Positions 4,001 to 63,905 of a stretch of DNA of 64,000 bases are shown here, piece after piece. Every line of letters begins with the position of its first letter. Position 1 is the first letter of the stretch. The notes under the pieces were generated by a model. The model made no database searches, was not told the DNA's origin, and worked only from the letters and a program-made list of their open reading frames with translations. The translations under genes were made by a program, and so were the position numbers. Origin of the DNA: Octopus sinensis (Eukaryota); the NCBI RefSeq assembly GCF_006345805.1, contig NC_043020.1, positions 5,332,001 to 5,396,000 of the forward strand. Reading direction: 5' to 3'.

Positions 4001-5433
4001 TGGTTGGTTAGCAAGCTACTTACCACACAGCCACTCCTGCACCTATGTAGATGATAAAATACCAATAATGTAAATGAAAAAATTGAAACTTACAGGAATT
4101 TTCGCCAAATTCTTCTGTCTCTGCCTGGTCTGCTTCTTCTGAATGAAGCTGATCTCCTTCATCATCATTTTACTATCCTGGAATGGAAAAAGGAAGAGAC
4201 AACAAGTCAAAGTTGGCTTTACACAACTGTAGCAGTTTGGTACAATTACGCAGATATTCAAGAATAATAAACCTTTCAAACCCACACAGTAAAAGACAGC
4301 ACAGCAAGTTTACAGATAAAGGTTCATCTACTCAATTAGGGAGCTGAGTGATGAGGTAGATTTTCATTAAGAGGGACCAATAACGGAGTATCTATGTAAC
4401 TGCATGACCAGAAAATTAGGGGTTATTGAATACCCTATATTATGATAGGGTATTCTATAAAAACTCTGTTGTATTCAGGGTACTGCATAAAAACTATTGC
4501 ATAAAGGCTCTATAAGAGCCTTTTACGGTTAATTCACCTACTAGAAATAACAACCAAATCTCCATAAAGCACACACTTTAAATCTTAACCCTTTCGTTAC
4601 CAACCCGGCTGAAACCGGCTCTGTGGTACAAATGTCTTGTTTGCAAAAGTTCTAAATTAAAATCTTCCACCAAACCTTAGTCACAATTTATGTTCCTAAC
4701 ACTAGCTTAATGATAACGAAGTTATTTTACTAAATTCTTTGTTGTAATTCAAAGTAATTGAAAGAAACACAGAACATCTCAACAGAAATACAGTAATGAA
4801 AGGGTTAAGAGAGGAAGATCAAATCGAATAATGTAGTCCTTGATACATAAGGTTCACCACATGGTCCAGTCCTTGTTGTGGTGTGAAGGCTTGTATGGAT
4901 TAATGACCCTAAGAGCTATGCTAGCAGAGTGTAAGCACTTGATAGGCTCTCCTATGCTGGACAGGTCAAAGGATGGAGGTTAGACTAAAATGGATCACCT
5001 CTTCTCAGTGTAGAACCAACAACACTACTTGGAAAAATGTCAAGTTATAGAAGCATCGATGATAACTGAAAACCAACAAGACCTGGGAGAGGATGACCTT
5101 CACTCGGGGAATCTTGACATGGGACAGTAAACTCCGAAAGGAAGTTACAAGGCCAACTCCCCATCTGATGATGAGAAGAAATGCCAAAGTTGCCATACAG
5201 AGGACCTGTAGCAGAATGGATTGAGGTCAGATGCCAATGGAAGAACAGATCCTGAAGCACAAGTGGGATGGGATGGGCCACACCTCAAGGAAACCAAGAT
5301 CCTGCATTACACATAAGGTCTGGACTTGGAACCCACAAGCGAGGCAGAAGAGAGGATAACTGAAGAGATGGCGGTGTGGTTTTCCACCTCGGCGTTTTAT
5401 CATGGCTACCGAATAATTGTCACAGATAAATTC

Positions 5434-12266: not shown

Positions 12267-15200
12267 TGATCATAATTTAATACCCACTTTCCTGAACTTG
12301 CCTGGGCCAGACAATTTTGTCGGGGAATATTTTCTATGGCCAGGTGCCCTTTCTATTGTTTATGTGTGTGTATGTATATAGATGTATGTATGTGTGTGTA
12401 TATTCTTTTACTCTTTTACTTGTTTCAGTCATTTGACTGCGGCCATGCTGGAGCACCACCTTTAGTCAAGCAAATCGACCCCAGGACTTATTCTTTGTAA
12501 GCCTAGTACTTATTCTATCGGTCTCTTTTGCAGAACTGCTAAGTTACGGGGACGTAAACACACCAGCATCGGTTGTCAAGTGATGTTAATGGGGGACAAA
12601 CACAGACACACAAACATATACACACATATATATATACACGACGGGCTTCTTTCAGTTTCTGTCTACTAAATCCACACACAAGGATTTGGTTGGCTCGAGG
12701 CTATAGTAGAAGACACTTGCCCAAGGTGCCATGCAGTGGGAATGAACCTGGAACCATATGGTTGGTAAGCAAGCTACTTACCACACAGCCACATGTATGC
12801 ATGTGTGTATATATATGTATGTATATTTTACAGCAAAGTCAGTTCTCTGGGAGTGTATGAAACCCAGATAATAGACACACACAAACACATACATACAAGC
12901 TGTATAGTTTATTTGCAATCTTCCAGGGAAACATGTCAGGCCATTGTGCTGTGTGTGTTTGAAAGACAAGGGGGAAAAATATCCCCATGCTTGAAAACAA
13001 ACGAGGATTGGCAACAGGAAGAGTAATTGGCCACAGGAAATCTCCCTCTATGAATCTTCTTGGATCTCTGACCCACCCAAGCACTGGAAAATGGATAAAA
13101 GAAAACTGGGTCACCATGGGAGGTTATTGAGATTCGTGAAGTGAAGATTTGCCACGGGTTTTGATGGATTTTAAGAGAATGTTTCGTCAACAGGGAAGAG
13201 GTGGGGGTTTAATAATAAAAAAAATAATAAAAGAAGGAACCAAATTAAATGGGGAAAAAAATGAACTTACTTTCTGCGCCGCCAACCGTTGGGCATGACC
13301 AATGTTGCTAATGCTTTGCCTGTAACATTCCGTTAGTTCTGCGATCTTCTCAGACTTTTCCTTGTTTAAATCCTCCTTGGAAACACAATAATAAAAAGAG
13401 ATGAGCAGGTTGTGGAAGACGCAATGAAAATTTTAGGGAAATAAAAATAAGAAAAAAGTGGAAATTTTACCGGTGAGTGTGTTACATTATAAGGCACAAA
13501 AAGAAAATGACTCTCCCCAGACACAACAGAATATGCTTCAACACACGAACTCGTATAAGGAATCTTGCAAACCAAATCCAAAATAAAAGGTTGTAGAAAA
13601 TTAATCTTTAAGCATTTAAACTGGCCATATCCAGTTTTATTCTACTTGTTTTATGTCTGAGCCAGCCAGATCAGGCTTCTCACACCTACCCTACAATGTC
13701 ATTCTCAAACTAAAATGCAGCAACAAAATCTTGAAGCTATGGGATAAACTCGAATTAATTTCAAACAATCATCATCAACATTTAACATCCATTTTCCATG
13801 CTAGCATGGGTTGGACGGTTCGACCGGGGTCTGGGAAGCCAGGAGGCTGCAGCAGGCACCAGTCTGATCTGGCAATGTTTCTACAGCTGGATGCCCTTCC
13901 TAATGCCAACCACTCCGTGAGTGTAGTGGGTGTATTTTACATGCCACCAGCACAGGTGCCAGGAGAGGCTGGTAATGGCCACAATCGGTTAGTGCTTTTT
14001 ACATGGCACGGAAGGCAGTCAAGGCGGTGCTGGCATCGGCCATGTTCGGATGGTGCTTTTTACGTGCCACCGGCACAGGTATCACAACTACAATTTCCAT
14101 TTGATTTTGATGTACTTGACTCAATGGTTCTCCTCAAGCACAGTGTGTATATATATATATCATCATCAACCTTTAACATCTGCTTTCCATGCTAGCTTGA
14201 GTTGAACGATTTAACTGAGGACTGGCGAACGAGATGGCTGCGCCAGGCTCCAATCTGATCTGATGTGGATGAATAAACATTATATTTAACTATTATATGC
14301 TTAATTTTAGTAATTGGTGCCAGTGCTGGTGGCACATAAAAAGCACCATTCGAGCGTGGCTGATGCCAGTACCGCCTGACTGGCTCTCATGTCGGTGGCA
14401 CGTAAAAAACACCCACTACACTCTCGGAGTGGTTGGCGTTAGGAATGGCATCCAGCTGTAGAAACTCTGCCAGATCAGACTGGAGACTGGTGTAGCCTCC
14501 TGGCTTGCCAGACCCCAGTCAAACCATCCAACCCATGCCAGCATGGGAAGCGGATGTTAAAGTACCATGATGATGATGATGAGTTCCTAATATTTTAATT
14601 ATAAAAATTCTAATAGGATTTTTTAAGACATCAAATGGCTTTGGGGATCCGGTAAAATAAAATATGATGAAAGGTATCCATGGGTAAAAAAAAAAAATGG
14701 TTTAGAATCGCTGATGAAGATGAAAAAAGGTAACTTACATTAATGGTATTGAATAATTTATTCAGTTCTTTGACTTTAGTTTTGGTTACAGCTTTTCTCA
14801 CTTTTGCTGCGTTGGTTTTGGAAATTTCCCGAACCTAAAATTCAACAATGCACATCCATTCCGTTTTAAAATTTCAAAAAAATAAGAAAAACAAAAAATG
14901 AATTGAAATCAAAAATGGAGTAAACCAACAATTCAAAAATGTTGATTTAGTCCCAAAGTTTTTCTGGGTAAATTTGAAGTTTAAACCTTTCATTACTGTA
15001 TTTATGTTGAGATGCTCTGTGTTTCATTCAATTATTTTAAAATATAACAAAGAATTTTGTAAAATAACTTAGTTATCATTAAACTAGTGTTAGGAACATA
15101 AATTGTGAACAAGGTTTGGTGGAAGATTTTAATTCAGAACTTATGAAAACAAGGCATTTGTACTGCAGAGCCAGAGGCGGTTTCAGCCAGGTTGGTATTA

Positions 15201-18158
15201 AAAGGGTTAAGAGAAGCTATTTAAGAAAGGAAGAATGATTTTATTGCTGTTGAGGTCATCTTCACCTTTCATATCTTCAACATCAATACTAATGGGACAT
15301 GTGGAAATTCTACAGAGTGAAAAAGATTAACCCTTTTGTTACCATATTTCTGTTGAGATGCTCTGTCTTTCTTTCAATTAATTTTAAATATAACAAAGAA
15401 TTTTGTAAAATAACTCAGTTATCATTCAGCTAATGTTAGGAATGTAAATTGTGAACAAGGTTTGGTGGAAGATTCTAATTCAGAACTTATGAAAACTAGA
15501 CATCTGTACTACAGAGCCAGAGGCGGTTTCAGCCAGGTTGGTATTAAAAGGGTTAAGAGAAGCTATTTAAGAAAGGAAGAATGATTTTATTGCTGTTGAG
15601 GTCATCTTCACCTTTCATATCTTCAACATCAATACTAATGGGACATGTGGAAATTCCACAGAGCAAAAAAGATTAACCCTTTTGTTACAATATTTCTGTT
15701 GAGATGCTCTGTGTTTCTTTCAATTAATTTTAAATAAAACAAAGAATTTAGTAAAATAACTCAGTTATCATTAAGCTAGTGTTAAGAACATAAATTGCGA
15801 CTAAGGTTTGGTGGAAGATTTTAATTCAAAACTTATGAAAACAAGACTTTTGTACTACAGAGACAGAGCCGGTTTCACCACACAATGAATGGAGTAAAGA
15901 TTGTTTGCCAACATAACATGGCAGTCCTGGTTTAGGACGAATGTTGCTGTAATTTAGCCCCAGGAGACATCGTCTCCAGCTGGCTATACGACATAATCTG
16001 TGTCCTTATATTTTCAAACAAGGGAATCTAGCACCCCCACTCGGCTCAAAACAATATCTGTGAAGACAGGGTGACAGTAACATTCGTCCTAAACCAGGAC
16101 TGCCATGTTATGTTGGCAAATAATCTCTACTCCAAAGTACTGTAGCTGAATATCTCACGTTGTGAGATTTACCACACAATGAAATGTCTGAATGTTTTCC
16201 TTACCTGCTGGAATCGAATCTTTCTTCGTCTCTCTCGTTCTTCTCTGGTAATTTTTTCTGTCTCATCAACAGTCAGTTGATAAGAAATGTCCAATTTAAT
16301 CACTGGAAATATAAAATTATATAACTTTAGCTGTCATCATTAACCCTTTTGTTACCATATTTATTTTGAGATGCTCTGTTTCTTTCAATTAATTTTAAAT
16401 ATAACACAAAAATTAGTAAAATAACTTAGTTATCATTCAGCTGGTGTTAGGAACATAAATTGTGACTAAAGTTTGGTGGAAGATTTTAATTCAAAACTTA
16501 TGAAAACAAGACATCTGTACTACAGAGCCAGAAGTGGTTTCAGCCAGGTTGGTAACGAAAGGGTTAAGAGAAGCTATTTAAGAAAGGAAGAATGATTTTA
16601 TTGCTGTTGAGGTCATCTTCACCTTTCATATCTTCAACATCAATACTAATGGGACATGTGGAAATTCCACAAAGCGAAAAAGATTAACCCTTTTGTTACC
16701 ATATTTCTGTTGAGATGCTCTGTCTTTCTTTCAATTAATTTTAAATATAACAAAGAATTTAGTAAAATAGCTTAGTTATCATTAAAACTAGTGTTAGGAA
16801 CATAAAAAGTGACTAAGCTTTGGTGGAAAATTTTAATTCAAAACTTGTGAAAACAAGACATTTGTACTCAGAGTCAGGACTGGTTTCAGCCGGGTTGGTA
16901 TCAAAAGGGTTAAGGCATTCTATCCATGACCCTCAAATTTATTTATTTTGTTTTCAGGCATAGTGTATTTACATTAGTATATCTAAATCACATGTAGGGA
17001 CATGGTATTTCATTAGGCAATCGTAATAAACTACAAAGTATAATAAACACCTTTGTAAGTGAATACCATGATCTACTGTGTTAGCAGTGCTACTACATCA
17101 CTTGTAAAGGTAGTCTCTCCAGTTTTCTATAGAAATTACGGTCAGCACAAATTTTGTTATAATTGTTTTGTATCCAAGACACTAGTCAATACCGGTCAAT
17201 TGTATAGGCAGTACTAGTACATCATTCGTTAAGCTTATCTCTACACGATCAGCGTTGGAAATTGTATACGTTCCCATCACCATTTGATGTGGTTAGTCAG
17301 ATCTGGATTGTATCAGAATGCTAAAAAAGTACCTGTTCAGATTCCAAATCCCTATTCCTTTATGTTTGATATATACATATACATATTTCTTTATTAACCA
17401 TAAGGGGCTAAACACAGAGGGGACAAACAAGGACAGACAAACGGATTAAGTCGATTACATTGACCCCAGTGCGTAACTGGTACTCAATTTATCGACCCCG
17501 AAAGGATGAAAGGCAAAGTCGACCTCGGTGGAATTTGAACTCGGAACGTAACGACAGACGAAATACGGCTATGCATTTCGCCTGGCGTGCTAACGTTTCT
17601 GCCAGCTCGCCGGCTTAATTATATATGTTATATATATACATATATAATTAGATAAAGATAGTTATGACTGGAGTTACAGCATCTTTTCAGATCTTGATGC
17701 CTGGTGGTTGTTAACTTCTCTATTGCTGGCGATAATTTCTGTACAAAATCCGGAGAGAAATTAGCATACACAATACATTACACAATACATGTATTTTTTC
17801 TGTTTTACGTACAGTGGGGTGAGATCTGATAGAGATTTGGCTGCTATTTCTAGCACATCGAATGAATGTAAACTTCCTATGTTAGGCACTACGCAAAATA
17901 ATGTTTTAGGGGTACTACACACTTAAAAACTATGGGAGATAGTCCAGGGCATTTCCAGGGACACCGTGGGAAAAAATCTGAAAAATCCCCGCAGGAGTGG
18001 CTGTGTGGTAAGTAGCTTGCTAACCAACCACATGGTTCCGGGTTCAGTCCCACTGCGTGGCATCTTGGGCAAGTGTCTTCTGCTATAGCCCTGGGCCGAC
18101 CAATGCCTTGTGAGTGGATTTGGTAGACGGAAACTGAAAGAAGCCTGTCGTATATATG

Positions 18159-20400: not shown

Positions 20401-22223
20401 CATTAGAAACCAACGTTTGGTGAAAATTTGAGTGAAGACGCTCTTGTCCGTGCCTATCTTCTATCGTTTGTCTTTTGTATAAATTATCGGACTGTGGCCA
20501 TGCTGGGGCACCACCTTGAGCGATTTTAATCGAACAAATCGACCTCAGGACTTTCTTTTTATTTTATTTTATTTTATTTTGAAATCTGGTACTTACTCAA
20601 AATCGGTCTCAGCAGTGGAGGCGTAATAGCCCAGTGGTTAGGGCAGCGGACTCGCGGTTTCGATTCCCAGACCGGGCTTTGTGTGTGTTTATTGAACGAT
20701 AACACCTAAAAGTTCCACGCGGCTCTGGCAGCGGGGTGGGTGGCGACCCCTGTTGTACTCTTTCGCTCAAACTTTCTCTCAGTCTTTCTTCCTGTTTCTT
20801 GTGCCCGACTTCCTACGCAGCCGCTGAGCCTGGATGCGCATCCATCCATCCGTCGATGCTCTCGGTGTCGGGGGTTGACCTGCTTTCTCTTCTGCGGGTC
20901 TTACGAATAGCAAAGGACCACATTTCAGACTTCTCCCACTACAAGGACGAAGACCGCTACGCTCAACAACAACACTCAACAGCAGCAGCAGTAATGGCAA
21001 CAGAGTAAACAAACGAAGCTCATTGCTCTAAAATGTGCATCTTTGGTCAACTAAGCACAACTCTGATCGAATATTCTTCCGTCTAAAACTGCATCCAATG
21101 CTATGATTCCACCCAAAAATACAAACCCTTACAGCTTTCTTTCAACTTCATCCAGTTAATCTCTGACTCAATATTTCTCTATTATTTCAGAACAGTCACC
21201 CCACCCCCCAATAAACATACCATTTTATATTCGTTCTTCCCTCGTTCATTACTGTTCTTATTTAAACCGATATCCATTGTTCGGAAATCTTTCGTGACAC
21301 CTCTGTGACCTCTTCGGCGACACTTTCCGTCCTCGTGTGAGGGCATGAGTTCAAATAAGAACAGTAATAAACGAGTGAAGAACGAACATATAATGTGTGT
21401 TCATTTACTCTTTTACTTGTTTCAGTCATTTGACTGCGCCCATGCTGGAGCACCGCCTTTAGTCGAGCAAATCGACCCGAGGACTTATTCATTGTAAGCC
21501 TAGTACTTATTTTATCGGTCTCTCTTTTGCCGAACCGGTAAGTTACGGGGACTAGACACACCAGCATCGGTTGTCAACAAGCGATGTTGGGAGGACAAAC
21601 ACACACACATTATATAAATATATATATATATAATGTGTGTTCATTTAAATGGCGGTGCCCCAGCATGGCCACAGCTCATTAGCTGAAACTGGAAAAATCA
21701 AAATCAAAATCATATACATATATATACGACGAGCTTCTTTCAGTTTCCATCTACCAAATCCACTCACAAGGCTTTGGTCGGCCCATATAGTACAAGAGAC
21801 CTGCCCAAGGTGCCACGCAATGGGACTGAACCCGGAACCATGTGGTTGGTAAGCAAGCTAGTACAATAGGATTTTTTAAACATGGAATGGTTATAAGGGT
21901 CCATTCGAGTAAACTAGGAATGAAGGAGATCCATAGGTAAATACCTGGCTGACAATCACTGTGGTAAATCGTTGATTAGATTATTTGCTGGTGCATTTGC
22001 CCCGTGGAGTTCAAAAGCCGCTGGTATAGTCAAGTTACTTCAATGAGGATCGCATATTTTGACCGATCGGACAGTCACAAATATTTTGCTTCGAAATGTT
22101 TGATGAATATCCTTGCTTTATCTTTGAGAACTTTATAGTCTTGTAAAACGTTGCTTTGTACAGATGGCTTAATACGTTCGAAGAACTGCAGCTATTACAA
22201 GTGGTAATTGATTCATAAGAGAG

Positions 22224-26190: not shown

Positions 26191-26598
26191 CATTTAATGT
26201 TCATCTTCCATGCTGGCATGGGTTGGACAGTTTGTCAGCAGCTAGGGTAGTAAGCCGTTTGAAGTGGACAAAATGTTTGGTTGGCACGGTGGTCAAGATG
26301 AAAAGCAAAATTAAGCCACAGACAGGACGGCAGACAAACACACACACACACACACACAGGAAGTGATACAAACTTGACCAGTTGTCCACTAAAGGTCAAG
26401 GTGGTTTCATAATGACCTTGACCATCAGTCGACAACTGACTTGTTTGGTTTCTTTACTTTTTGTATCTTGTTCTGGGTGCTTTACCTGTTGTCCATACTT
26501 GATTGATGTCTGTGTGTGTGTGTCTATATATATATATAATTTATACACATGCACATAAATACACACGTACATATGATTCATATAAGTCTTAGATATAA

Positions 26599-27224: not shown

Positions 27225-30200
27225 CTGAAATGGAGAAGGGTTTTTTTTGAAGAATTAGATGCGGGGAGAGAGAGAGAGACTGAGTGTTTGTATGAGGGAG
27301 GTGGACAGAGGGAGGGAGTGAGTGAAGTGGGGAAACAAGTGTGTTTCTATGAGACAGAGAGAGATACTGTGTTTATGTGAATGTATGTCTGTGTGTGTGT
27401 GTGAGAGAGAGAGAAGGAGAGAGAGAGGGAAGGAGAGATGTGATGGCTGACGGTCAGTAAGGAGAGACACAAATAAGAAAGAAGAAAGCAAAGGACCACT
27501 GATGAGGTCACAGGAGTGTGACGAAAGAACTCTGGCCGAAATAAGATTAAGATTAATGTAAAAAAATAAATAACACTGAAGCAAAATAACACCAAGACCC
27601 CAGGATTTATTCATTGTAAGCCTAGTACTAATTCTGTCGGCCTCTTCGCTGAACCACTACATTACGGGGGACATAAACACACCAACACCGGTTGTGAGGT
27701 GATGGTATGGGATCAAACACGGACACAAAGACGCACACACACACATAGATACATACATATTTAAATCTCCGTCTAGCAAATCCACTCACAAGGATTTGGT
27801 CAGCTCAAGGTGCCACGCCGTGGGACTGAACCCGCAACCATGAGGTTGGGAAACAAACATCTTACCACACAGCCATGCCTGCACCAATCTATCTATGTAT
27901 ATATAATTTTATTGGTTGAGTCAGTGGAGAGAATAAAATCAATTCTAAGAAACATTATCATCATCATCATTGTTTGGCGTCTGCTTTCCATGCTGGGAGG
28001 CGGCACCAGACTCCAGTCTGATTTGGTAAGGTTTCTACAGCTGGGTGCCCTTCCTAATGTCAACCACCCCAAGAGTGTAGTGGGTGCTTTTTACGTGCCA
28101 CCAACATGGGGGCCAGTCAGGTGGCATTGGCATCATCCACACTCAAATGGTGCTTTTTATGTGCCACTGGCACAGGAGCCAGTCAGGCGGCACTGGCATC
28201 GAGCCAAAATTTTATTTAAAAAAAAAAGAAAAAAGAAAAAGGTTAAAATTCATGAGTGATGACTTACCACACTATCATTCGGTTTAGGCTCAATGCCTAT
28301 CGCATCAATCACATGTTGAAGGTTTGTTTGACTAGTTGAGTTTAGGGCACCGTTTAGGGCTGATAGTGATTGGTGGACTCTGTCCCCAACTTCTTTACTT
28401 AACCGAAGGTCGACATCATCTCTTTTGTTCTCCTTCTCCATCTCTTCTTCTAATTCTTTGTCATGTTCTTTTTCTTTCTCTTCTTCCACTTCTTCAACTT
28501 CCAATTCTTCTTCTTCTTCATCATCATCACCATCTTGTTCTTCTTTGTCTTCCGTTTCTGGGAAAAGTAGAGAGATTAAAAGCAAATTAAGATAAATATA
28601 TAAACATGAGCACTCAGAGAGTGCAAACTTCCGCCAAGGCAACACCAACGACCTATCAACGATTAACTGGAGATGATTTTTAAAATGAGAATATCTGAAA
28701 TAAACTCAACTGCTCTCTCAAACGAGAATACTAAAAATGAACCCGATCGCTCTAAAAAATTGAGTAAAAAAAACGGAAAAATAATCCAGAATCCTTATCC
28801 GGTACCTGATCAATTCCCATGGTAGTCATGGAATATGAGTGTGGCTGTAGAAAATTTAGTAACATTCATGTGTGTGTGTGTGTGTATGTGTGTGATGCAA
28901 AAATAAAAAAAGTACATGAAGACAATGTAAAAAACCAAAACAAACAAACAAGGTATATAAGGATGATGCTCAAAAGAATTGGAAGAACTCGATGTTTTGA
29001 GCCAATTCTCTTCTTCAGGAATGAAAGGATAGATGAAGAGAGAATCTTACCTTGATAAAATTCTTCCCTTGCTTGTCTGTTCTGTTGTTGATTTCCCAGT
29101 TGTAATTCTACTTTTGCTGTTTCCTCGTCAACGTCCCTGTAATTAATGCGGTGGAGCAAGAAAACAGAACTTTGCAAAATAGCTCAGCTAAACAAAAACA
29201 CAAAATATGATAAAAAAACAAAACAAACAAAATACCTTATTCAGATAATAAAATAAAAATAAATGCGCCCTTTTAAAGCCTAGCCAGGCTCATGGGCCCG
29301 GTTTCCTGGTTTCTATGGCCTACGTGTTCCCCAGCTGGACGGGACGCCAGTCCATCGCAGCGTTACTCATTTATGCCAGCTGAGTGGACTGGAGCAACGT
29401 GAAATGAAGTGTTTTGCTCAAGAACACAACGCGTCGCCCGGTCCAGGAATCGAAACCACAATCTTACGATCATGATGCTGACACCCTAACAGAAAACACT
29501 GATTACTGTACCGTAAGTAACCAGAATAGATCTGGTACATACTTAACTGGCATTCTGCCGGTTAGGACAACAAGGGTTCCAGTTGATTTGATCAACAGAA
29601 TAGCCTGCTCATGAAATTAATGTGAAAGTAGCTGAGAACTTAGTGTAAATCATGCAGGTGAAAGCATCAAAATTTACCAAAAGAAGTGATTCCAGTGCTT
29701 TTTTGTTTTTAAAGCCTAATACTTATTCCATTGGTCTGTTTTCCCAATCCACTAAGCTACAGGGACAAAAACAAACCAACACTGATTGTCAAGCGGTGGC
29801 AGGGAACAAACACAGACATGAAGGACTTCTTTCAGATTTTGGTCGACCTGAGGTTATAGTAGAAGATACTTGCCCAAGGTGCCACACAGAGATTGAACTT
29901 AGAACCATGTGGTTGGGAAGCAAACCTCTTATTAACCAGCCACACCTGTGCTTGCCTACCTACATACATACATACACACTGACACACACATACACATATA
30001 TGATGGGCTTTTGTCAGTTTCTGTTTACCAAATCCACTCACAAGGCTTTGGTTGGTCCGAAGCTATAGTAGATGACACTTGCCAAAGGTGCCATGCAGTG
30101 GAATTGAACCAGGAACCATGTGGTTGGTAAGCAAGCTACTTACCACACAGCCACTCCTGAGCCTATTGCTTACCATTTTACATTCTGTTAAATATTTCAA

Positions 30201-33200: not shown

Positions 33201-36200
33201 AATCCCAATAATATTAGGCGCAGGAGTGGCTGTGTGGTAAGTAGCTTGTTTACCAACCACATGGTTCCGGGTTCAGTCCCACTGCGTGGCACCTTGGGCA
33301 AGTGTCTTCTACTATAGCCTCGGGCCGACCAAAGCCTTGTGAGTGGATTTGGTAGACGGAAACTGAAAGAAGCCCGTCGTATAAATGTGTATGTGTGTGT
33401 GTGTTTGTCCCCCTAGCATTGCTTGACAACCGATGCTGGTGTGTTAATGTCCCTGTAACTTAGCGGTTCGGCAAAAGAGACCGATAGAATAAGTACTGGG
33501 CTTACAAAAGAATAAGTCCTGGGGTCGAGTTGCTTGATTAAAGGCATGGCCGCAGTCAAATGACTGAAACAAGTAAAAGAGTACTTACATCAGATCATCA
33601 TTCTGCTGCTTAATCAAAAGCCGAAATTTATAAATTTCGTGTTCGCCTTCCTGCCGCTGTTTCTCGGATTCTTCAAGATTCATTGTGAGGCTCTCGTTTG
33701 CAGCTTCCAAATTCTGAAATCCAAACGGTAATATCTAGAATATTATCAGAAATATTAAATTTCTAAATATCTCATAGAGATATGTGTGGTGGTGGAGCGA
33801 TAGAGTGGTTGTATACTTATTTCTTTATTGCCCACAAGGGGCTAAACATAGAGGGGACAAACAAGGACAGACAAAGGGATTAAGTCGAATACATCGACCC
33901 CAGTGCGAAACTGGTACTTGATTTATCGACCCCGAAAGGATGAAAGGCAAAGTCGACCTCGGCGGAATTTGAACTCAGAATGTAACGGCTGACGGAATAC
34001 CTCTCAGCATTTCGCCCGGCGTGCTAACGTTTCTGCCAGCTCGCCGCCTTATATACTGTCAACTTAACGTGACAGTCCCATCTTCAGCTAGCAGGCCTTG
34101 CTACTCTAGACTGATGATGGGCAAGACCCAGAAACATGCATGTCTCTAGATGCAGGCCTAGCTGTTGGGGGTGTTTGTCTCCCCTTCGTAAATATATAAG
34201 GACACAGGAAATGTGTCAAGGCCGACAGGAAGCGTCGATGTTTCCTAGGGCTAAATAGCGGTGGTGTAATTCCCTTTATGGGGACTGTCACGTTAAGTTG
34301 ACAGTATACAACCACTCTATAATATTATCCTTTCTACTAAAAGCACAAAGCCTGAAATTTTTGGGGAAGGGACCAGTTGGTTACATCGACCCCCAGTGTT
34401 TCACTGGTACTTAATTTATTGACCCCCGAAAGGATGAAAGGCAAAGTTGACCTCACCAGAATATGAACTCGGAATATAATACATCTGATATAATAAATAT
34501 GGGCATATGGCATAGTGGTTAAGAGCACGGGCTACTAACCCCAAGATTCCGAGTTCAATTCCAGGCAGTGACCTGAATAATAATGATCTCGAAAAATACC
34601 TTAGGAATGAGAACCCAATGGTAAGTAGCTTGCTTACCAACCACATGGTTCCAGGTTCATTCCCACTGCGCAGCACCTTGGGCATGTGTCTTCTATTATA
34701 GCCTCGGGCCAACCAAAGCCTTGTGAGTGGATTTGGTAGACGGAAACTGAAAGAAGCCCGTCGTATATATGTATATATGAGTGTATATGGTTGTGTGTGC
34801 ATGTGTTTGTGTTTGTCCACCCCACCCTCCAAACATCACTTGACAACCGATAGAATAAGTACCAGGCGAACAAAGAATAAGTTAGTTAGTTAGTTAGTTA
34901 TTTTTTGGCTCAAAAAGCAAAAAGCAAGGCCATGTAGGGGGACATGGAGTTATGTACAGGGTGGTGTTCATGTAAAGAGTTCAGGCCACTCGAGGTCAAG
35001 GGAGACTTTGAACCGAGCGGCCGTCGGCATCTTCACCATCTCGTCTGGCAGCTTATTCCACGGATCCGCAACCCGGACAGAGAAAGCCCCCTCTCCTTCG
35101 ATTGAGATGAAATCGTCACAGATAGAGCTTTTCGGAATGACCCCGCAGCCGACGCTCTGGAGCAGGAGTGAAGAACAGCTCTTTGGGGTCGATTTGCTTG
35201 ACTAAAGGCGGTGCTCCAGCATGGCCACAGTCAAATGACTGAAACAAGTAAAAGAGTATATGTGTGTGTGTGTCCCCGTCCAATACTGTCATCGCATGAT
35301 GGTTGTAAAGGAGCGTTATTCGTCTCCAATATTCCGTGGAAAGCATGTCCGGTCATGTGGAAAATATTACCTTGTTTGGAAACAGGTGGGGGTTGGGTGA
35401 CAGGAGCGGCATCCTGTTGTTATCAAAGTAAGTTTAAAGGAAGATCTACCATTATGAAGGAGGAGGAGGAGGTGGTGGTGGTCATTATAGGAAGCAAAGT
35501 GATTTTTACCTCTCGTTTCCTTTGTAGAACTTTGCATTCAGATTCCATGGATTCAAATTGTCCCTGGAGGATGTCTTTTTCCTCTTGGACAGCTTTCAAT
35601 TGCTTCTCACATTCCTGTGGAAAATAATAATATCAAAATAACAATAATTATAGTAAGAATGGTTTCAAAGTTATTTTACTAAATTTTTGGTTAAATCTAA
35701 ATTAATTGAAAGAAACACAGAACATCTGAAAATAAATACGGTAACGAAAGGGTTAATCAATTTCATTGACCCTAGTACTTGACTTGTACTCTAATTTATT
35801 ACTGACCCTGGAAAGATAAAAGGGAGGACGTTACCTTTAGCCTTTCTGTAAGCTGCTGGATTCGCTGGTTCTTCTCGTCGTCCTGTCCATCTGCAGATTT
35901 GCTGCGTTTCTCCATGCTGTGCATCTTGCGCAAGAATGTTTTATGCAGCCGCTCATGTTCGGTTCTTAGAAGAGCTGCCTGGAATGGTAAAAAGCAAAGC
36001 AAAAACTCACTGAATAAATCAAAGAATGGTGAAGAACTGAATAATTTATCATCATCATCCTCATCATCGTTTAACGTCTGCTTTCCATGCTAGAAACCAG
36101 ACCAAATCAGACTGGAGACTGGTGCAGACCCTCAGCTTATCAGCTCTGGTCAAACTGTCTAACCAATGGAAAATGGACACTGATGATGACAGTGATGATT

Positions 36201-37039: not shown

Positions 37040-37238
37040 AATCCAAACATGAAAACACGATAACGTGAGGACGTGGAACAAATATAGTATTATTGAATGC
37101 TCAGGAAGGAAGGGAAGAAGGAGGGTTTAACGTTTCGAGCACAGCTCTTTGTCAGAAACATAGGAAAAGGAAAAATCTAAAGAAGAGAAGACAGACGAAA
37201 AAAATTTCGCCAACAGTACACATGCAGTCACATTTTGA

Positions 37239-37275
<37 letters not shown>

Positions 37276-39260
37276 AACATATAATGGGCTTCTTTCAGTT
37301 TCCACCTACAAAATCCAGTCTCAAGACAGGTCAGTCTGTGGCTAAGTATGCATAAGGTGCCATGCAATGTAATTGAACCTGAACTCACAGGATTCGTAAG
37401 TAAACTTAAAGAATAAGGCTTTGAAAGTCTGCGACTGACCTTTTTGGAATTCTCTTCAAGAGTTATTTTCTGTTGCTGACATTCCTTTGTCTTCTTCTCA
37501 AAATGTTTATAAACTTTCTTGACTTGCTGTTTCAAGTCGGTCTCGCGGTTCTTAACAAGAATATCGATATGTTGAACCAATTCTTGTAATTCTTGCTCAC
37601 AGGATCTCATCAAAACGCCATCAACTGGGAGTCTGAAGAGGAACAGAGGTGAAAGGGAGAAACATAAAAAATTGAGTTTACCATATGAAACCCAAATGTA
37701 GAAACCTTATTAATCATGTTTATAATAGTTTATACTAGTTGGAGACATCATCATCATCGTTTAATGTCTGTTTTCCATGCTAGCATGGGTTGGACAATTT
37801 TGACTGAGGACTGGTGAACCAGATGGCTGCACCAGGTTCCAATCTTGATCTGGTAGAGTTTCTACAGTTGGATGCCCTTCCTAATGCCAAACACTCTGAG
37901 AGTATAGTGGGTGCTTTTTATGTGCCACCGGCTCGGGGGCCAGTCAGGCGGTACTGGCACATTCCTAATATTTAATATTTTGCATATTGCGGAAGAATAA
38001 CCAATTTATTTAGGTGGGATGGGGGGCTCTGGAGAGGGTTTCAGAGAGTAGCATCCCTGGCGGTGAGCTGGCAGAATCGATAGCACACCAGGCGAAATGC
38101 TTAATGGTATTTCGTCTGCCGCTACATTCTGAGTTCAAATTCTGCCAAGGTCGACTTTGCCTTTCATCCTTTCAGGCTCGATAAATTAAGTACCAGTTAC
38201 GCACTGGGGTCAATGTAATTGACATAATCCATTTGTCTGTCTTTGTTTGTCCCCTCTGTGTTTAGCCCCTTGTGGGCAGTAAAGAGATAGGTATTTCATC
38301 AATCGTTACGTTCTGAGTTCAATTTCTGCCGAGGTCGACTTTGCCTTTCATCCTTCCGGGGTTGATTAAACAAGTACCAATTATGCAGTGGGGTCGATGT
38401 AATTGACTTAATCTGTTTGTCTGTCCTTGTTTGTCCGCTCTGTGTATAGGCCTTTGTGGGCAGCAAAGAAATGGGAGTAGCATCCCTGCCCTCCTGAGCT
38501 AGTTTTCTACCACATTTCTTAAAAATTGTGGTAGAGGCCTTGGTCTTAGGACCACTCATGTCTAGAAACTGAGGTTGGGAGTAAACAAGGGCATGCTCCC
38601 TGTAGAAAACCCAGCTCCAAAAAAGCCTCATGATAACAAAGGAGAATGGGCCCCAACCAGCCCAACGGTTGGGGTGGGCTGCACCTACTTACCTCAGTTG
38701 CTATGGCATTGAGGTAGATCCAGCCACCCCCATTAACGGAGACAAAACCCAGATTTAAGACACTCGTCTAAAGCACAGTTTTTTCATGAAAAAAGCACCC
38801 ACTACACTCACGGAGTGGTTGGCGTTAGGAAGGGCATTCAGCCGTAGAAACACTGCCAGATCTGACTGGACCTGATGAAGCCTTCCGGCTTCCCAGACCC
38901 CAGTTGAACCGTCCAACCCATGCTAGCATGGAAAACGGACGCTAAATGATGATGATTCCCCAATTTACTATATTGCATCCGTGGAGCCCCAGATTCTATA
39001 TGGACCCTGGTTGAGAACCCCTGATTTAGATGATCTATCATGTGAAGTCTGGCTGCTGACCGGCCAATAACAAACATGTCATGGTTTTAACTTTGTAATT
39101 CGACAGTGCAGGTTCAAGTCTCAGTACGTCTTGGTCTCTTATTATTTATTCAATAAAGTTGTGCAGTTTAAAACAATACAAATGTCCACTAAATGACTTA
39201 CATGTTTTGATTTTCCAAATCTTTCCACAGATTTTGCGGGGATGCATCGTTATCGGTCAT
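27078..39260 (-). CDS. CEP63: CEP63/DEUP1 (CCDC67) family centriolar coiled-coil protein, 545 aa, complete
   Basis: Exons 39202-39260, 37440-37632, 36536-36631, 35835-35978, 35510-35614, 33589-33713, 32395-32533, 31431-31553, 30563-30693, 29051-29136, 28268-28557, 27078-27224 sum to 1638 nt in one frame. N-terminal SCEQELQELVQHIDILV matches the family motif SCEAELQELMKQIDIMV; C-terminal EFLHKEQ...NTEGVIQRY matches the family end. Confidence 0.88.
28268..28557 (-). CDS. CEP63: CEP63 acidic exon ETEDKEEQDGDDDEEEEE...NDSV
   Basis: tcccag / gtaagt, 290 nt, phase 1-0. Confidence 0.85.
29051..29136 (-). CDS. CEP63: CEP63 exon DVDEETAKVEL...EEFYQ
   Basis: ttacag / gtaaga, 86 nt, phase 2-1. Confidence 0.82.
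30309..30537. mobile_element. piggyBac-type MITE family 2
   Basis: TTAA|CCCTTTAG...CTAAAGGG|TTAA; partial copies at 36646-36750 and 13603-13765. Confidence 0.78.
30563..30693 (-). CDS. CEP63: CEP63 exon AEKVVLGKII...WMAQA
   Basis: tgttag / gtgggt, 131 nt, phase 0-2. Confidence 0.82.
31010..31270 (+). mobile_element. RTE LINE 3' fragment nested in family C element
   Basis: RRVQFAGHCCR...LLLWKP...RGRTLSYPD...AMMDRKVWR then (GAT)n. Confidence 0.8.
31431..31553 (-). CDS. CEP63: CEP63 exon NDYEMLETLQNEN...LELLK
   Basis: ttgcag / gtgggt, 123 nt, phase 0-0. Confidence 0.82.
31967..32374 (+). mobile_element. SINE family A, full length
   Basis: Collinear with other copies. Confidence 0.9.
32395..32533 (-). 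CDS. CEP63: CEP63 exon DYGKSDDLLKRA...HQMK
   Basis: tttcag / gttagt, 139 nt, phase 2-0. Confidence 0.85.
33216..33583 (+). mobile_element. SINE family A abutting a CEP63 splice donor
   Basis: Collinear; tail aagtaaaagagta runs into cttac. Confidence 0.9.
33589..33713 (-). CDS. CEP63: CEP63 exon NLEAANESL...QNDDL
   Basis: tttcag / gtaagt, 125 nt, phase 0-2. Confidence 0.85.
33800..34320. mobile_element. MITE with ~41 bp TIRs; left TIR split by a SINE
   Basis: atagagtggttgtatac[SINE]tgtcaacttaacgtgacagtccca ... tgggactgtcacgttaagttgacagtatacaaccactctat; partial copy 57677-57832. Confidence 0.8.
34882..35180 (-). mobile_element. CR1-type LINE 3' end
   Basis: RLRGHSEKL...WNKLP; (ctaa)n tail; same family as 54085-54395. 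Confidence 0.8.
35510..35614 (-). CDS. CEP63: CEP63 exon ECEKQLKAVQ...RKRE
   Basis: ccacag / gtaaaa, 105 nt, phase 0-0. Confidence 0.85.
35835..35978 (-). CDS. CEP63: CEP63 exon AALLRTEHERL...ERLK
   Basis: ttccag / gtaacg, 144 nt, phase 0-0. Confidence 0.87.
36536..36631 (-). CDS. CEP63: CEP63 exon ILALQSQVEWL...LKSK
   Basis: tgacag / gtaaac, 96 nt, phase 0-0. Confidence 0.87.
37125..37159 (-). ncRNA. Degenerate minimal hammerhead motif in pLTR-like fragment (37037-37240)
   Basis: gttt-CTGACAA-a gagc tgt gctc-GAAACGTT-aaac; G8 mutated. Confidence 0.55.
37440..37632 (-). CDS. CEP63: CEP63 exon LPVDGVLMRSCEQELQELVQHIDILV...NSKK
   Basis: cttcag / gtcagt, 193 nt, phase 2-0; family signature motif. 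Confidence 0.92.
38059..38475 (+). mobile_element. Tandem dimer of SINE family B
   Basis: Unit repeats after aaagagataggtatttc (about 38290). Confidence 0.85.
39202..39260 (-). CDS. CEP63: CEP63 first coding exon MTDNDASPQNLWKDLENQN(I)
   Basis: AAACATG start, gtaagt donor, phase 2 fits next exon; acceptor at about 39318. Confidence 0.75.
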
Positions 39261-45429: not shown

Positions 45430-57434
<12,005 letters not shown>

Positions 57435-57867
57435 ACATTCTGCTTAATTTATCAACACCTCTGTTTGTCTTGTTGTGTGTATATATGTGTATATATTTAT
57501 GTGTATATATATATACTTTATTTAAAGCAGCAGAAACGGGAAACTCAGAGTAACAGGTTTTTTCTCTTTGAATTTTCTGCTGCTTTAAATAAAGCATATT
57601 ACTCTACCACTGGTATTTGAGTACTCTTTTTTCCACCTTGTTTCACATTTATGTGTTTACTCCGGTATATATATATATAGAATGGTTGTATACAGTCAAT
57701 CTAACGTGAACGTGACAGTAGGGCGGTACACCACTGCTGTTTAGCCCTAGGAAGCATCGACGCCTCCTGATGGCTTTGACACATTTTTCTTGTGACCTTA
57801 TATACATTTACGAAGGGGAGATAAATATCCCCAGGTAAAATAATATGTGACAATTATTCGGTGGCCA

Positions 57868-57930
57868 AGATAAAACTCTGAGTTTCTGATGCCGAGGTGG
57901 AAATCCACAACACCCTCTCTTCGGTTATCT
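57868..57930 (-). ncRNA. Hammerhead-like motif in fold-back element 57835-58035
   Basis: agataa-CCGAAGA-long stem II-GAAACtcagaGTT-ttatct; U4>C. Confidence 0.55.
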
Positions 57931-58108
57931 GGCCATCTGAAAAATGCAAATTCGTGAAGCGTTCCATATTTTTTAAGATCCGAAACTCAGAGTTTTATCT
58001 TCGCTACCGAATAATTGTCACACATTATTTTACAGATAAATTTCCTCTATTTACATAATATTGAGGTCTCTTTCTTTCTTTTGTTATCTTACCGTTTTTA
58101 CCAATATA

Positions 58109-60820: not shown

Positions 60821-61086
60821 ATATAATAGAAAAAATAAGGTATTCAGAGATCTGGATGGTTGTACATATACAAATATTTATTAACGTGACACATGTTTTT
60901 ACAAATCACGTATCAGCGCTTTCATCTACTCTAATAGATTCTTCAGATTTTCTTCAAAATCTGAAGAATCTATTAGAGTAGATGAAAGCGCTTATACATG
61001 ATTTGTAAAAACATGTGATGTTTATAAATATTTGTATATGTACAACCATCCAGATATCTGAATACCTTATTTTTTTCTAATATATA
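60821..61086. repeat. Fold-back (palindromic) element with hammerhead core in each arm
   Basis: About 130 bp arms, 4-nt loop at 60952-60955; CTGAAGA atcta ttagag tagat GAAAGCGCT. Confidence 0.85.
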
Positions 61087-61127
61087 ATATCTGTACATCA
61101 CTTCCAAACCTTCTAATATATATATAT

Positions 61128-61162
<35 letters not shown>

Positions 61163-61748
61163 GACACAGACTAAATCACAGTATGTTGTATACTATATGT
61201 GCTCCAAATCTCATTGGTGAGTGGTGTGTCTTTTTTCTATCACAATCAGGTATCATATATATATATATATGATGTAAATAATAAACCATTATTGATTAAG
61301 ATTTAAATATTACATTATGCAATAAACATCAGATCTATACATGCATATATATATATATATACACACACACACAAGTCCATTTATAAAACTTTAAATTATG
61401 CTTTTTGTTTCAACATACATTTCTCTTTTCATGCTAGGAATATATATATATATGAGATATTGTGATTCGGGGTCAAGTAGTTTTACAGTTCGAAGTCCCA
61501 GTCCTATGTCATTAATTAAGGGAGCTGAGAGAAGTTGAATGTCTGGTTTGTATCTGAGCAGCATAACAACATTACTGTAATAGAAAGGTCGAACTCCTGA
61601 GCATATTACTGGTATCTCCAAGGTGGTAACTTTACTGTGGCTGGTATTGGTACCTTCTTAAATGATGGTATTTCATGACTATCACATATTCCGAACTCAG
61701 GAGAACAACATGTGTGTTTGAGTATATACACACATATACACACACATT

Positions 61749-61931
61749 TTATAAGCTTAAAGCTTGTAAGCAATCCCCGTGTAATGACTAAAGAAAATAG
61801 CCTAATAATGAAATATATAAACCCTTGATGGCAAAAATACTTTTTCTGTCAAGGGCTTATATGCCCCAATATTAGGGGCTATTTTCTTTAATCCTTACAC
61901 AGTGATTGCTCATAAACTTTAAGCTTATAAA
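61749..61931. repeat. Fold-back element
   Basis: Imperfect ~90 bp arms ttataagcttaaag...ctttaagcttataa. Confidence 0.8.
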
Positions 61932-61995
61932 ATATTATTATTAATTACAGAATTGCAAAAAAATTGACACTGCTTACCAAAAAACCACAGCATAT

Positions 61996-62238
61996 ATATA
62001 TATGAAATACAAAATGGGACAAGAATGCAAAACATCCGGACAACTAGGTGATACAAAAAGGGACAACAAAACATCCAGATAGACGATACAAAGAAAGTAA
62101 GGATGGGTCATTCTGAGTTTTCTACCCGTCCTTGTTTTTTTGTATCATCTATCTGGATGTTTTGTTGTCCCTTTTTTGTTTCACCTAGTTGTCCAGATGT
62201 TTTACGTTCTTGTCCCATTTTGTATTTCATATATATAT
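61996..62238. repeat. Fold-back element in (TA)n
   Basis: About 110 bp arms atgaaatacaaaatgggacaagaa / ttcttgtcccattttgtatttcat. Confidence 0.88.
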
Positions 62239-62329
62239 ATAGCGGCATACGTACACTTTGTTCTCTTTTATATATATATATAGGTTTGTTGGTGCAAACA
62301 GGAAAAATAGAACGCAAAGTATGAGCATA

Positions 62330-62480
62330 TGTATATATTTAATTAATATTTAGCAGAATTAACAGAGTAACTCGTGGGTCGAGAGTTTTGTGAATTGGCA
62401 CTCTGATGAGTGCCAATGCATGAAACCTTCAGACCTTGAGTCACTCTGTTGCATCTGGTAAATATTAACAAACATATATA
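62330..62480. repeat. Fold-back element centred on CTGATGA hammerhead core
   Basis: ttggcactc-tgat-gagtgccaa axis; aacagagt / actctgtt and aatattt / aaatatt outer arms. Confidence 0.75.
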
Positions 62481-62494
62481 TATATATATATATA

Positions 62495-63075
62495 TATGAA
62501 AATTAGAAAAAAAACACCTTTAATCAATTCAAAATGAACAATTAAATTACACCATCTAAAAAATTACATATAATAGAAATATTAAAATTAAAATATTATT
62601 GTTATTTTAATATTTCTATTATACTCTTTACTCTTTTACTCGTTTCAGTCATTTGACTGCGGCCATGCTGGTGCACCGCCTTTAGTCGAGCAAATCGACC
62701 CCGGGACTTATTCTTTTGTAAGCCCAGTACTTATTCTATCAGTCTCTTTTGCCGAACCGCTAAGTGACGGGGACGTAAACACACCAGCATCGGTTGTCAA
62801 GCAATGTTAGGGGGACAAACACAGACACACAAACACACACATACATACATATATATATATACATATATACAACAGGCTTCTTTCAGTTTCCGTCTACCAA
62901 ATCCACTCACAAGGCATTGGTGGGCCCAAGGCTATAGCAGAAGACACTTGACCAAGATGCCACGCAGTGGGACTGAACCCAGAACCATGTGGTTGGTAGG
63001 CAAGCTACTTACCACATGGTTTAATTTAATTGTTCATTTTGAATTGATAAAAGGTGGGTTTTTTTCTAATTTATA
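62495..63075. repeat. AT-rich fold-back element interrupted by a SINE
   Basis: aattagaaaaaaa...atcaattcaaaatgaacaattaaatta is inverted at 63020-63072; inner hairpin 62570-62622. Confidence 0.75.
62622..63016 (-). mobile_element. SINE family A
   Basis: Collinear with other copies. Confidence 0.9.
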
Positions 63076-63369: not shown

Positions 63370-63905
63370 GAGCAAGTTGATTACATTGACCCCAGTGCGT
63401 GACTGGTACTTGTTTTATCAAACCCTGAAAGGATGAAGGGCAAAGTCGACCTTGGTGGAAGAAATTTGAACTTAGAGCGTAGTGAGTCGGAAGAAATACT
63501 CATTTCTTTACTACCCACAAGGGGCTAAACACAGAGAGGACAAACAAGGACAGACAAAGGGATTAAGTCGATTACATCGACCCAGTGCGTAACTGGTACT
63601 TAATTTATCGATCCCGAAAGGATGAAAGGCAAAGTCGACCTCAGTGGAATTTGAACTCGGAACGTAACGGCAGATGAAATACCTATTTCTTTACTACCCA
63701 CAAGGGGCTAAACACAGAGGGGACAACGAAGGACAGACAAACGGATTAAGTCGATTACATCGACCCCAGTGCGTAACTGGTACTTAATTTATCGACCCCG
63801 AAAGGATGAAAGGCAAAGTCGACCTCGGCGGAATTTGAACTCAGAACGTAACAGCAGACGAAATGCTGTCGGAAGAAATACTGCCAAGCAATTTTTCCGA
63901 CGCTG
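63370..63905 (-). mobile_element. Tandem multimer of SINE family B
   Basis: About 183 bp units at 63501-63683 and 63684-63865. Confidence 0.85.

Follow-up and report, generated by a model that had tools for sequence, protein, structure and literature searches.

Penelope-like insertions and their hammerheads

Insertions of Penelope-like elements (PLEs) show a characteristic architecture. An inverted, 5'-truncated copy lies at the 5' end of such an insertion and a tail of 30–40 bp is present at one end (PMC8557442), and insertion features of this kind are likewise described in PMC8969392. PLEs are biased toward microsatellites, which conceals target duplications, and the supplement of the same source includes four Octopus PLE families that prefer (TA)n (PMC8557442). 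The junctions of inverted copies are characterized by palindromes and a head-to-head order (PMC3846280). In AT-rich DNA, a PLE protein nicks and extends both strands, and reverse transcription begins at two sites that bound the tail, while the later steps of insertion have been left unvalidated (PMC11167929). For the inverted junctions, self-priming has been proposed (PMC3846280).

The pseudo-LTRs (pLTRs) of PLEs contain hammerhead motifs, which have been reviewed (PMC6765202). These motifs mostly occur as single remnants and sometimes as opposite-strand pairs 100–700 bp apart, and in Schistosoma PLE hammerheads the C3-G8 pair is replaced by U3-A8 (PMC4209133). Swapping the 3-8 pair of a hammerhead gives partial rescue (PMC11167929).

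The insert described here lies in an AT microsatellite near the end of the window, i.e., the whole 64-kb stretch of DNA that was analysed. It is an ordinary dead retroelement stub and a routine case of the known insertion pattern. It consists of two head-to-head, 5'-shortened copies of a family end placed in (TA)n with a one-sided tail, and very probably represents a dead Penelope-like insertion whose hammerhead is predicted to be unfoldable. The features of the insert and its flanks are the following:

62270–62282, no strand: (AT)n microsatellite forming the left flank, the likely target (from the sequence; other family copies abut (TA)n too)
62283–62342, minus strand: one-sided 3' extension ("tail", ~45–60 bases) of the inverted copy (from depth and loose ends of aligned contigs)
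62343–62403, minus strand: left arm, a decayed, inverted, 5'-truncated copy beginning at core position 8 or 9
62402–62409, plus strand: junction TC-TGAT-GA, a mini inverted repeat in which 62403 mirrors 62408 and 62402 mirrors 62409
62403–62409, plus strand: hammerhead box 1, CTGATGA in this copy (from the sequence; family majority TTGATAA)
62408–62468, plus strand: right arm, a direct, 5'-truncated copy without tail (from arm comparison and contig alignment)
62410–62421, plus strand: stem II region of 4 pairs and a 4-base loop, with a closing G-T (from pattern scan and fold)
62422–62442, plus strand: GAAA box, decayed stem III and GTC (from the sequence and pattern scan)
62443–62452, plus strand: stem I 3' strand, its 5' partner absent here and present upstream of the core in other copies
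62474–62497, no strand: (AT)12 microsatellite, right flank (from the sequence)

Architecture of the insert

The fold-back at 62343–62468 is formed by two arms of 61 bases each (62343–62403 and 62408–62468) separated by a 4-base spacer, with its axis, ttggcactc-tgat-gagtgccaa, at 62395–62416. Complementarity between the arms extends to 46 of 61 positions, transitions accounting for 9 of the 15 differences, which agrees with the original prediction that the left arm is a diverged reverse complement of the right. They are detected by self-BLAST of the sequence (E = 3e-19), and the RNA fold of the palindrome reaches −66.4 kcal/mol (z = −11.7), a value equalled by none of 200 shuffles. The palindrome and the hammerhead letters of its right arm are real and above chance, and the letters quoted for the axis and for the CTGATGA, GAAAC and GTC boxes are correct when checked in the sequence. 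In the left arm, the GAAA box has decayed to AAAA and the cut triplet to GTT.

With a size of ~190 bases and a leftmost position of ~62283, the whole insert is larger than the palindrome originally noted. Family sequence reaches left to this point, and a tail of ~55 bases had been overlooked. A target-site duplication would be indistinguishable from the (AT)n repeat at the flanks. The axis is crossed by contigs from the runs of organisms B and C (run X3, record 8, with 0 differences; run X7, record 30, with 6 differences), and since contigs of two other organism labels thus span it, the junction is genuine DNA and not an assembly artefact. Record 9 of run X4 contains the whole stretch and may be the source DNA itself. 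The pairs that close the junction correspond to core positions 2.1/9 and 3/8, and the TGAT spacer reads in the sense of the tail-less right copy.

The assignment to PLEs rests on this architecture. The inverted, 5'-truncated copy adjoins the 5' end of the direct copy, yielding the head-to-head arrangement, and the tail is found only at the left end, being continuous with the arm in other copies. Furthermore, both flanks consist of AT or microsatellite target sequence, and loose-end consensuses show the ends of the family next to (TA)n. The 5' truncation is variable while the 3' end is retained, as seen from the varied joints, the upstream loose ends and a depth gradient that is partly confounded by the likeness cut-off. 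In the 30 letters given for each loose end, no frame for a telomerase-like reverse transcriptase or a GIY-YIG endonuclease was recognized, and the likeness therefore holds at the level of PLEs, above the clades Neptune, Hydra, Penelope/Poseidon and Nematis.

With endonuclease-bearing PLE insertions, the locus has in common the head-to-head truncated copies, the junction palindrome, a tail at one end and a microsatellite target without readable target duplication (PMC8557442; PMC3846280; PMC8969392). It differs from the published insertions in that both copies are only ~60–120 bases long and in that the tail comprises 45–60 bases compared to 30–40 bp (PMC8557442). The kind of insertion has already been described. 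Among the papers listed, no title or opening of an abstract deals with this family or with an axis fixed on the core, a scope outside which Repbase, Dfam and subscription journals lie. The papers listed on RNA editing of hairpins of this sort contain nothing specific to it. Five short family motifs gave 0 matches in the supplement of PMC8557442, whose sequences may not be searchable text. The exact motif patterns had 0 matches in viral contigs, metagenome contigs and prokaryote genomes, as expected for an animal repeat.

The hammerhead motif of this copy

In the right arm, GAAAC occupies 62422–62426 and GTC 62440–62442, followed by actctgtt; by standard hammerhead numbering, the cut site is presumably located after 62442. 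A strict hammerhead pattern, composed after the motif had been seen, has 2 matches in the window (here and at 34111) against 0 in each of 150 block-wise dinucleotide shuffles, while a relaxed pattern has 5 matches against a shuffle mean of 0.5 and a maximum of 4 (60 shuffles). The proposed derivation of the motif from a hammerhead is borne out by this excess over shuffles, and by the complementarity of positions 3/8 and the stem I partner observed at the family level. Calling the core full is accurate for the two boxes and the GTC but not for the stems, since in cis stem I is reduced to 1 pair and stem III to 2 pairs.

Stem II pair probabilities stay at ≤0.001, whether the right arm is folded by itself or as part of the whole insert. 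When stems II and III are forced with an open core, the energy is −30.5 compared to −65.9 kcal/mol, a penalty of ~35 kcal/mol. Having no 5' stem I strand, this copy is predicted to lock as a long hairpin in which the hammerhead is dead. A cleavage assay with aacagagt as stem I partner in trans had been suggested. This octamer turns out to be the mirror arm, the natural stem I strand being located upstream of the core in other copies, and its use in trans would, we assume, leave a break between core positions 2.1 and 3. Rfam searches of the window stay empty at gathering scores, and even at E up to 10 no hammerhead model appears near the element; as Rfam also passes over the complete type I motif at 34111, this blank carries no information.

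Both boxes are shared with the type I hammerheads found in PLE pseudo-LTRs, including that of Schistosoma Cercyon with U3-A8 (PMC4209133). The Cercyon-type U3-A8 pair is present in most family copies, whereas this copy has C3-G8; a G-C pair closes stem II in type I PLE hammerheads, as in the left-arm type here, and like this copy most PLE hammerheads are lone remnants of truncated elements (PMC4209133). In contrast to the minimal PLE motif, stem II has 4 pairs here without an extra base after A9, and stem III is longer, with 13 bases between the conserved pairs (PMC4209133). This copy also departs from type I PLE hammerheads in its loss of the stem I 5' strand.

The repeat family in public contigs

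Contigs of 4 of the 24 public runs (those listed for 61440–62700) were aligned to 62283–62474 at 80% likeness, yielding 1096, 1038 and 807 aligned contigs in three large runs and 15 in a small run. The family is very abundant. In run X5, single contigs have a depth of ~25–60 and sums reach 83,000, although summed depth does not equal copy number. Within the 64-kb window, BLAST found no second copy of the family. No run labelled as RNA is among those listed; several small runs, guessed to be RNA, share 43–55% of the words of 61440–62700, and X4 shares the whole stretch.

The summed depth in X5 is ~83,000 close to the 3' end and drops to ~2,000 by the core, a gradient that is partly an artefact of the mid-insert decay of this copy and the 80% cut-off, and it reaches ~46,000 within 62283–62342. 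Among the features listed (15 of 29 joints, 24 of 385 loose-end rows and 32 of 3108 pieces), the loose ends behind 62472 (55, 49 and 40 contigs) are the reverse complement of 62283–62342, which shows that the arm of other copies continues directly into the tail, and those behind 62341 continue into the arm. The loose ends before 62287 and 62293 show (TA)n, with 22–25 contigs per row. Before 62404 and 62409, the median loose end is 74–156 letters long, and the family hence extends upstream of the core.

The majority letter at 62408 is A in X5 (2377 of 2798 in summed depth), X3 (2047 of 2316) and X7 (312 of 374), and the loose ends before 62404 finish in T. From these two observations, the family-majority box 1 reads TTGATAA (U3-A8). 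A consensus without CTGATGA had been put forward as grounds for rejecting the motif. This outcome has come about by half: the majority box is indeed different, but as U3-A8 is a known compensated variant of the core, the consensus is altered and the hammerhead kept. The loose ends before 62404 (38, 28 and 24 contigs) read GTAAC-T-AGT-T in X5 and X7 and TAAC-A-AGT-T in X3, at a low consensus agreement of 0.46–0.53 over 30 letters. By eye, this upstream strand pairs with the stretch that follows the cut site, ACT-CT-GTT(A/G)C, through 3 pairs, a small internal loop and 4–5 pairs, so that in three runs a closing strand of stem I is present 5' of box 1 at the family level. A box 1 with complementary positions 3/8, the GAAA box and a UH cut site are found at the family level as well. 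The motif of the family is, or once was, probably a ribozyme.

The closing pair of stem II is G-T in this copy, while the left arm, like most contigs aligned to it, has C (row 62389, T>C, 1585 of 2122 in summed depth in X5). Across copies this is a one-sided G-C/G-T change, and among the 40 variant rows listed, which end at 62435, no compensatory change in stem II was found.

The five readable joints of other copies among those listed (62340/62417, 62365/62439, 62370/62412, 62373/62436 and 62388/62433) are all asymmetric and off the core. In addition, one X4 contig turns symmetrically within stem II, and a 110-base contig shared by three runs has its joint upstream of the core by a few bases. 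Contig breakage at near-perfect palindromes may under-count young, exact fold-backs in such comparisons. The original prediction held that this palindrome and the one at 60.8 kb, although unrelated in sequence, fold exactly on their cores by a recurring mechanism. The two are indeed unrelated (no BLAST match at E 0.05), and a common process behind both palindromes is supported, having been published for Penelope-like insertions. A fold fixed on the core finds no support as the recurring feature: the five other readable joints and the X4 loose end turn elsewhere, and in the 60.8-kb element the axis lies ~8 bases upstream of the core.

Other elements of the window

Cores of other, similar stubs are found in the window at 27499, 34111, 60946/60961 and 21315, with one-sided extensions at 61.1 and 61.95 kb; some of their axes fall upstream of the core, others downstream or at a long distance from it. 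The hammerhead at 34111 (plus strand, within 34052–34308) is a complete type I motif with a 6-pair stem I, a 4-pair stem II and a palindromic stem III, and it sits in an element with identical 28-bp inverted ends that has relatives at ~15950–16040 and 57690–57830. At 27499 (plus strand) lies a minimal hammerhead whose stem I is short and whose A9 is followed by an extra G; a decayed relative occurs at 21315 (minus strand) inside an asymmetric fold-back (21210–21405). The palindrome at 60830–61115 is younger, with an arm match of 93%, the core on both arms, a palindromic stem III and an extension of ~30 bases at its right end only. In two copies of another family (5355–5427 and 57835–58033), a box-1-like heptamer precedes a long hairpin; the latter copy lies within an asymmetric fold-back. 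The 60-base hairpin at 26379–26438 contains a near-box-1 heptamer and GAAAC on its minus strand.

Unrelated fold-backs next to (TA)n, in which the pattern finds no core, occur at 61746–61991, 61992–62240, 48227–48477 and 57511–57599, the first having an extension of ~55 bases at one end. Four fold-backs are packed in 1.7 kb at 60.8–62.5 kb. A unit of 184 bases resembling a SINE is repeated 2.6 times head-to-tail at 63374–63864, and the SINEs flanking the insert presumably resemble octopus SINEs. The segment 40342–43819 is a tandem duplication of ~1.75 kb with 96% identity, each unit of which consists of an inverted SINE pair around a microsatellite; the duplication may be real or may reflect two haplotypes assembled in series. 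Three related copies of a 550–580-base unit (90–92% identity) are present at 14977–16914. The window is DNA of an animal, and its coding sequence is represented by a COMM-domain protein exon pair at 56934–57434 (plus strand, Pfam E 1.9e-11) and a CEP63-like protein exon at 37152–37706 (minus strand, E 3.8e-07, just under the cut-off score).

Proposed assembly of the insert

The insert may have formed in the following manner. The endonuclease of the element would nick both strands of the AT tract, after which reverse transcription would be primed at two sites close to the RNA's 3' end, yielding one cDNA with the tail and one without. These cDNAs would be primed from opposite sides of the cut and both halt after ~65–120 bases, inside the hammerhead. 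Their 3' ends would then anneal via the 2-base overlap TC/GA and be filled in, and the arms would have diverged by ~25% after insertion. The overlap comes from the complementarity of hammerhead positions 3 and 8, joined in this copy by that of 2.1 and 9; with these core bases supplying it, the axis would be likely to land on the core. The orientation of the spacer is of particular value here. The loop reads TGAT on the plus strand, which starts with the complement of the tail, whereas a single tail-bearing template folding back would leave ATCA, and this favours two separately primed cDNAs. The argument concerns one locus, and a flip of the spacer after insertion would undo it.

The nearest competitor to such joining shares the Penelope-type origin but derives the mirror arm from one self-priming template, with the core as its preferred turning point. 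The symmetric junction, in which two core pairs close a 4-base loop, would fit this, as would the likewise 4-base loop near the core of the 60.8-kb element, the other symmetric turn seen in stem II of the X4 contig and the interpretation of junction palindromes as self-priming (PMC3846280). However, the spacer goes with the tail-less arm, and the tail on the opposite arm could not have been copied from a template that lacks it, which supports two templates; the five readable joints among those listed are asymmetric and located elsewhere, and the depth in X5 is 146 at 62403 compared to 2798 at 62408. We consider a single self-primed template unlikely. A related proposal, that Penelope reverse transcription preferentially stops and joins at the hammerhead core, with the 3-8 pair giving the overlap for two cDNAs, is tentative and in our view quite unlikely. 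A 2-base overlap with a 4-base loop is available at 3 of 60 arm positions, and being that common, it makes this copy alone no demonstration of a preference for the core.

Joining of two PLE cDNAs must also be weighed against origins of other kinds. Non-LTR retrozymes, i.e., tandem, hammerhead-bearing, circular-RNA elements, are known from molluscs (PMC7229834), and the family resembles them in being short, non-coding and high-copy with a canonical-sized type I hammerhead (PMC7229834; bioRxiv 10.64898/2026.07.22.740005). The 4-pair stem II and two-part stem I are nearer to the canonical metazoan type I than to the minimal motif with its long stem II (PMC4209133). A locally inverted retrozyme remnant is nevertheless highly improbable: head-to-tail monomers of 150–450 bp with hammerheads were sought at the locus and no tandem unit was found, and the one-sided PLE-type tail, the head-to-head order with an inverted partner and the 3'-anchored depth suit a PLE insertion. 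The two readings moreover overlap, as a 2026 preprint argues that animal retrozymes are PLE derivatives (bioRxiv 10.64898/2026.07.22.740005). Insertion at TA of a MITE-like DNA element bounded by long terminal inverted repeats, its hammerhead letters being incidental, would account for a short, palindromic, high-copy and TA-flanked sequence, but it is barely credible given that the ends are asymmetric and the centres vary between copies, which largely refutes it; furthermore, copies extend upstream of the core, and the motif exceeds chance in a family with a compensated 3-8 core and a stem I partner. Finally, the locus might yield a working or trans-activatable ribozyme or a hairpin RNA used by the host, as this copy retains a canonical C3-G8 box, GAAA and GTC and lies 4.85 kb past the end of a same-strand COMM-domain frame, where read-through is possible. 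This is extremely improbable as well, since there is no stem I in cis, stem III is decayed, the long hairpin is predicted to dominate the fold, and the arms, with 15 differences over 61 positions, give no signal of constraint.

Implications for the family

The favoured reading remains a dead Penelope-like stub joined from two cDNAs, and the family to which it belongs seems to carry both U3-A8 and C3-G8 cores; searches for CTGANGA only would miss most of its copies. High-copy stub families of this kind permit counts of spacer owners and junctions that separate fold-back of one template from the joining of two cDNAs. If the core were indeed a stop-and-join site, the side to which the spacer belongs across thousands of stubs would settle how inverted insertions are assembled.
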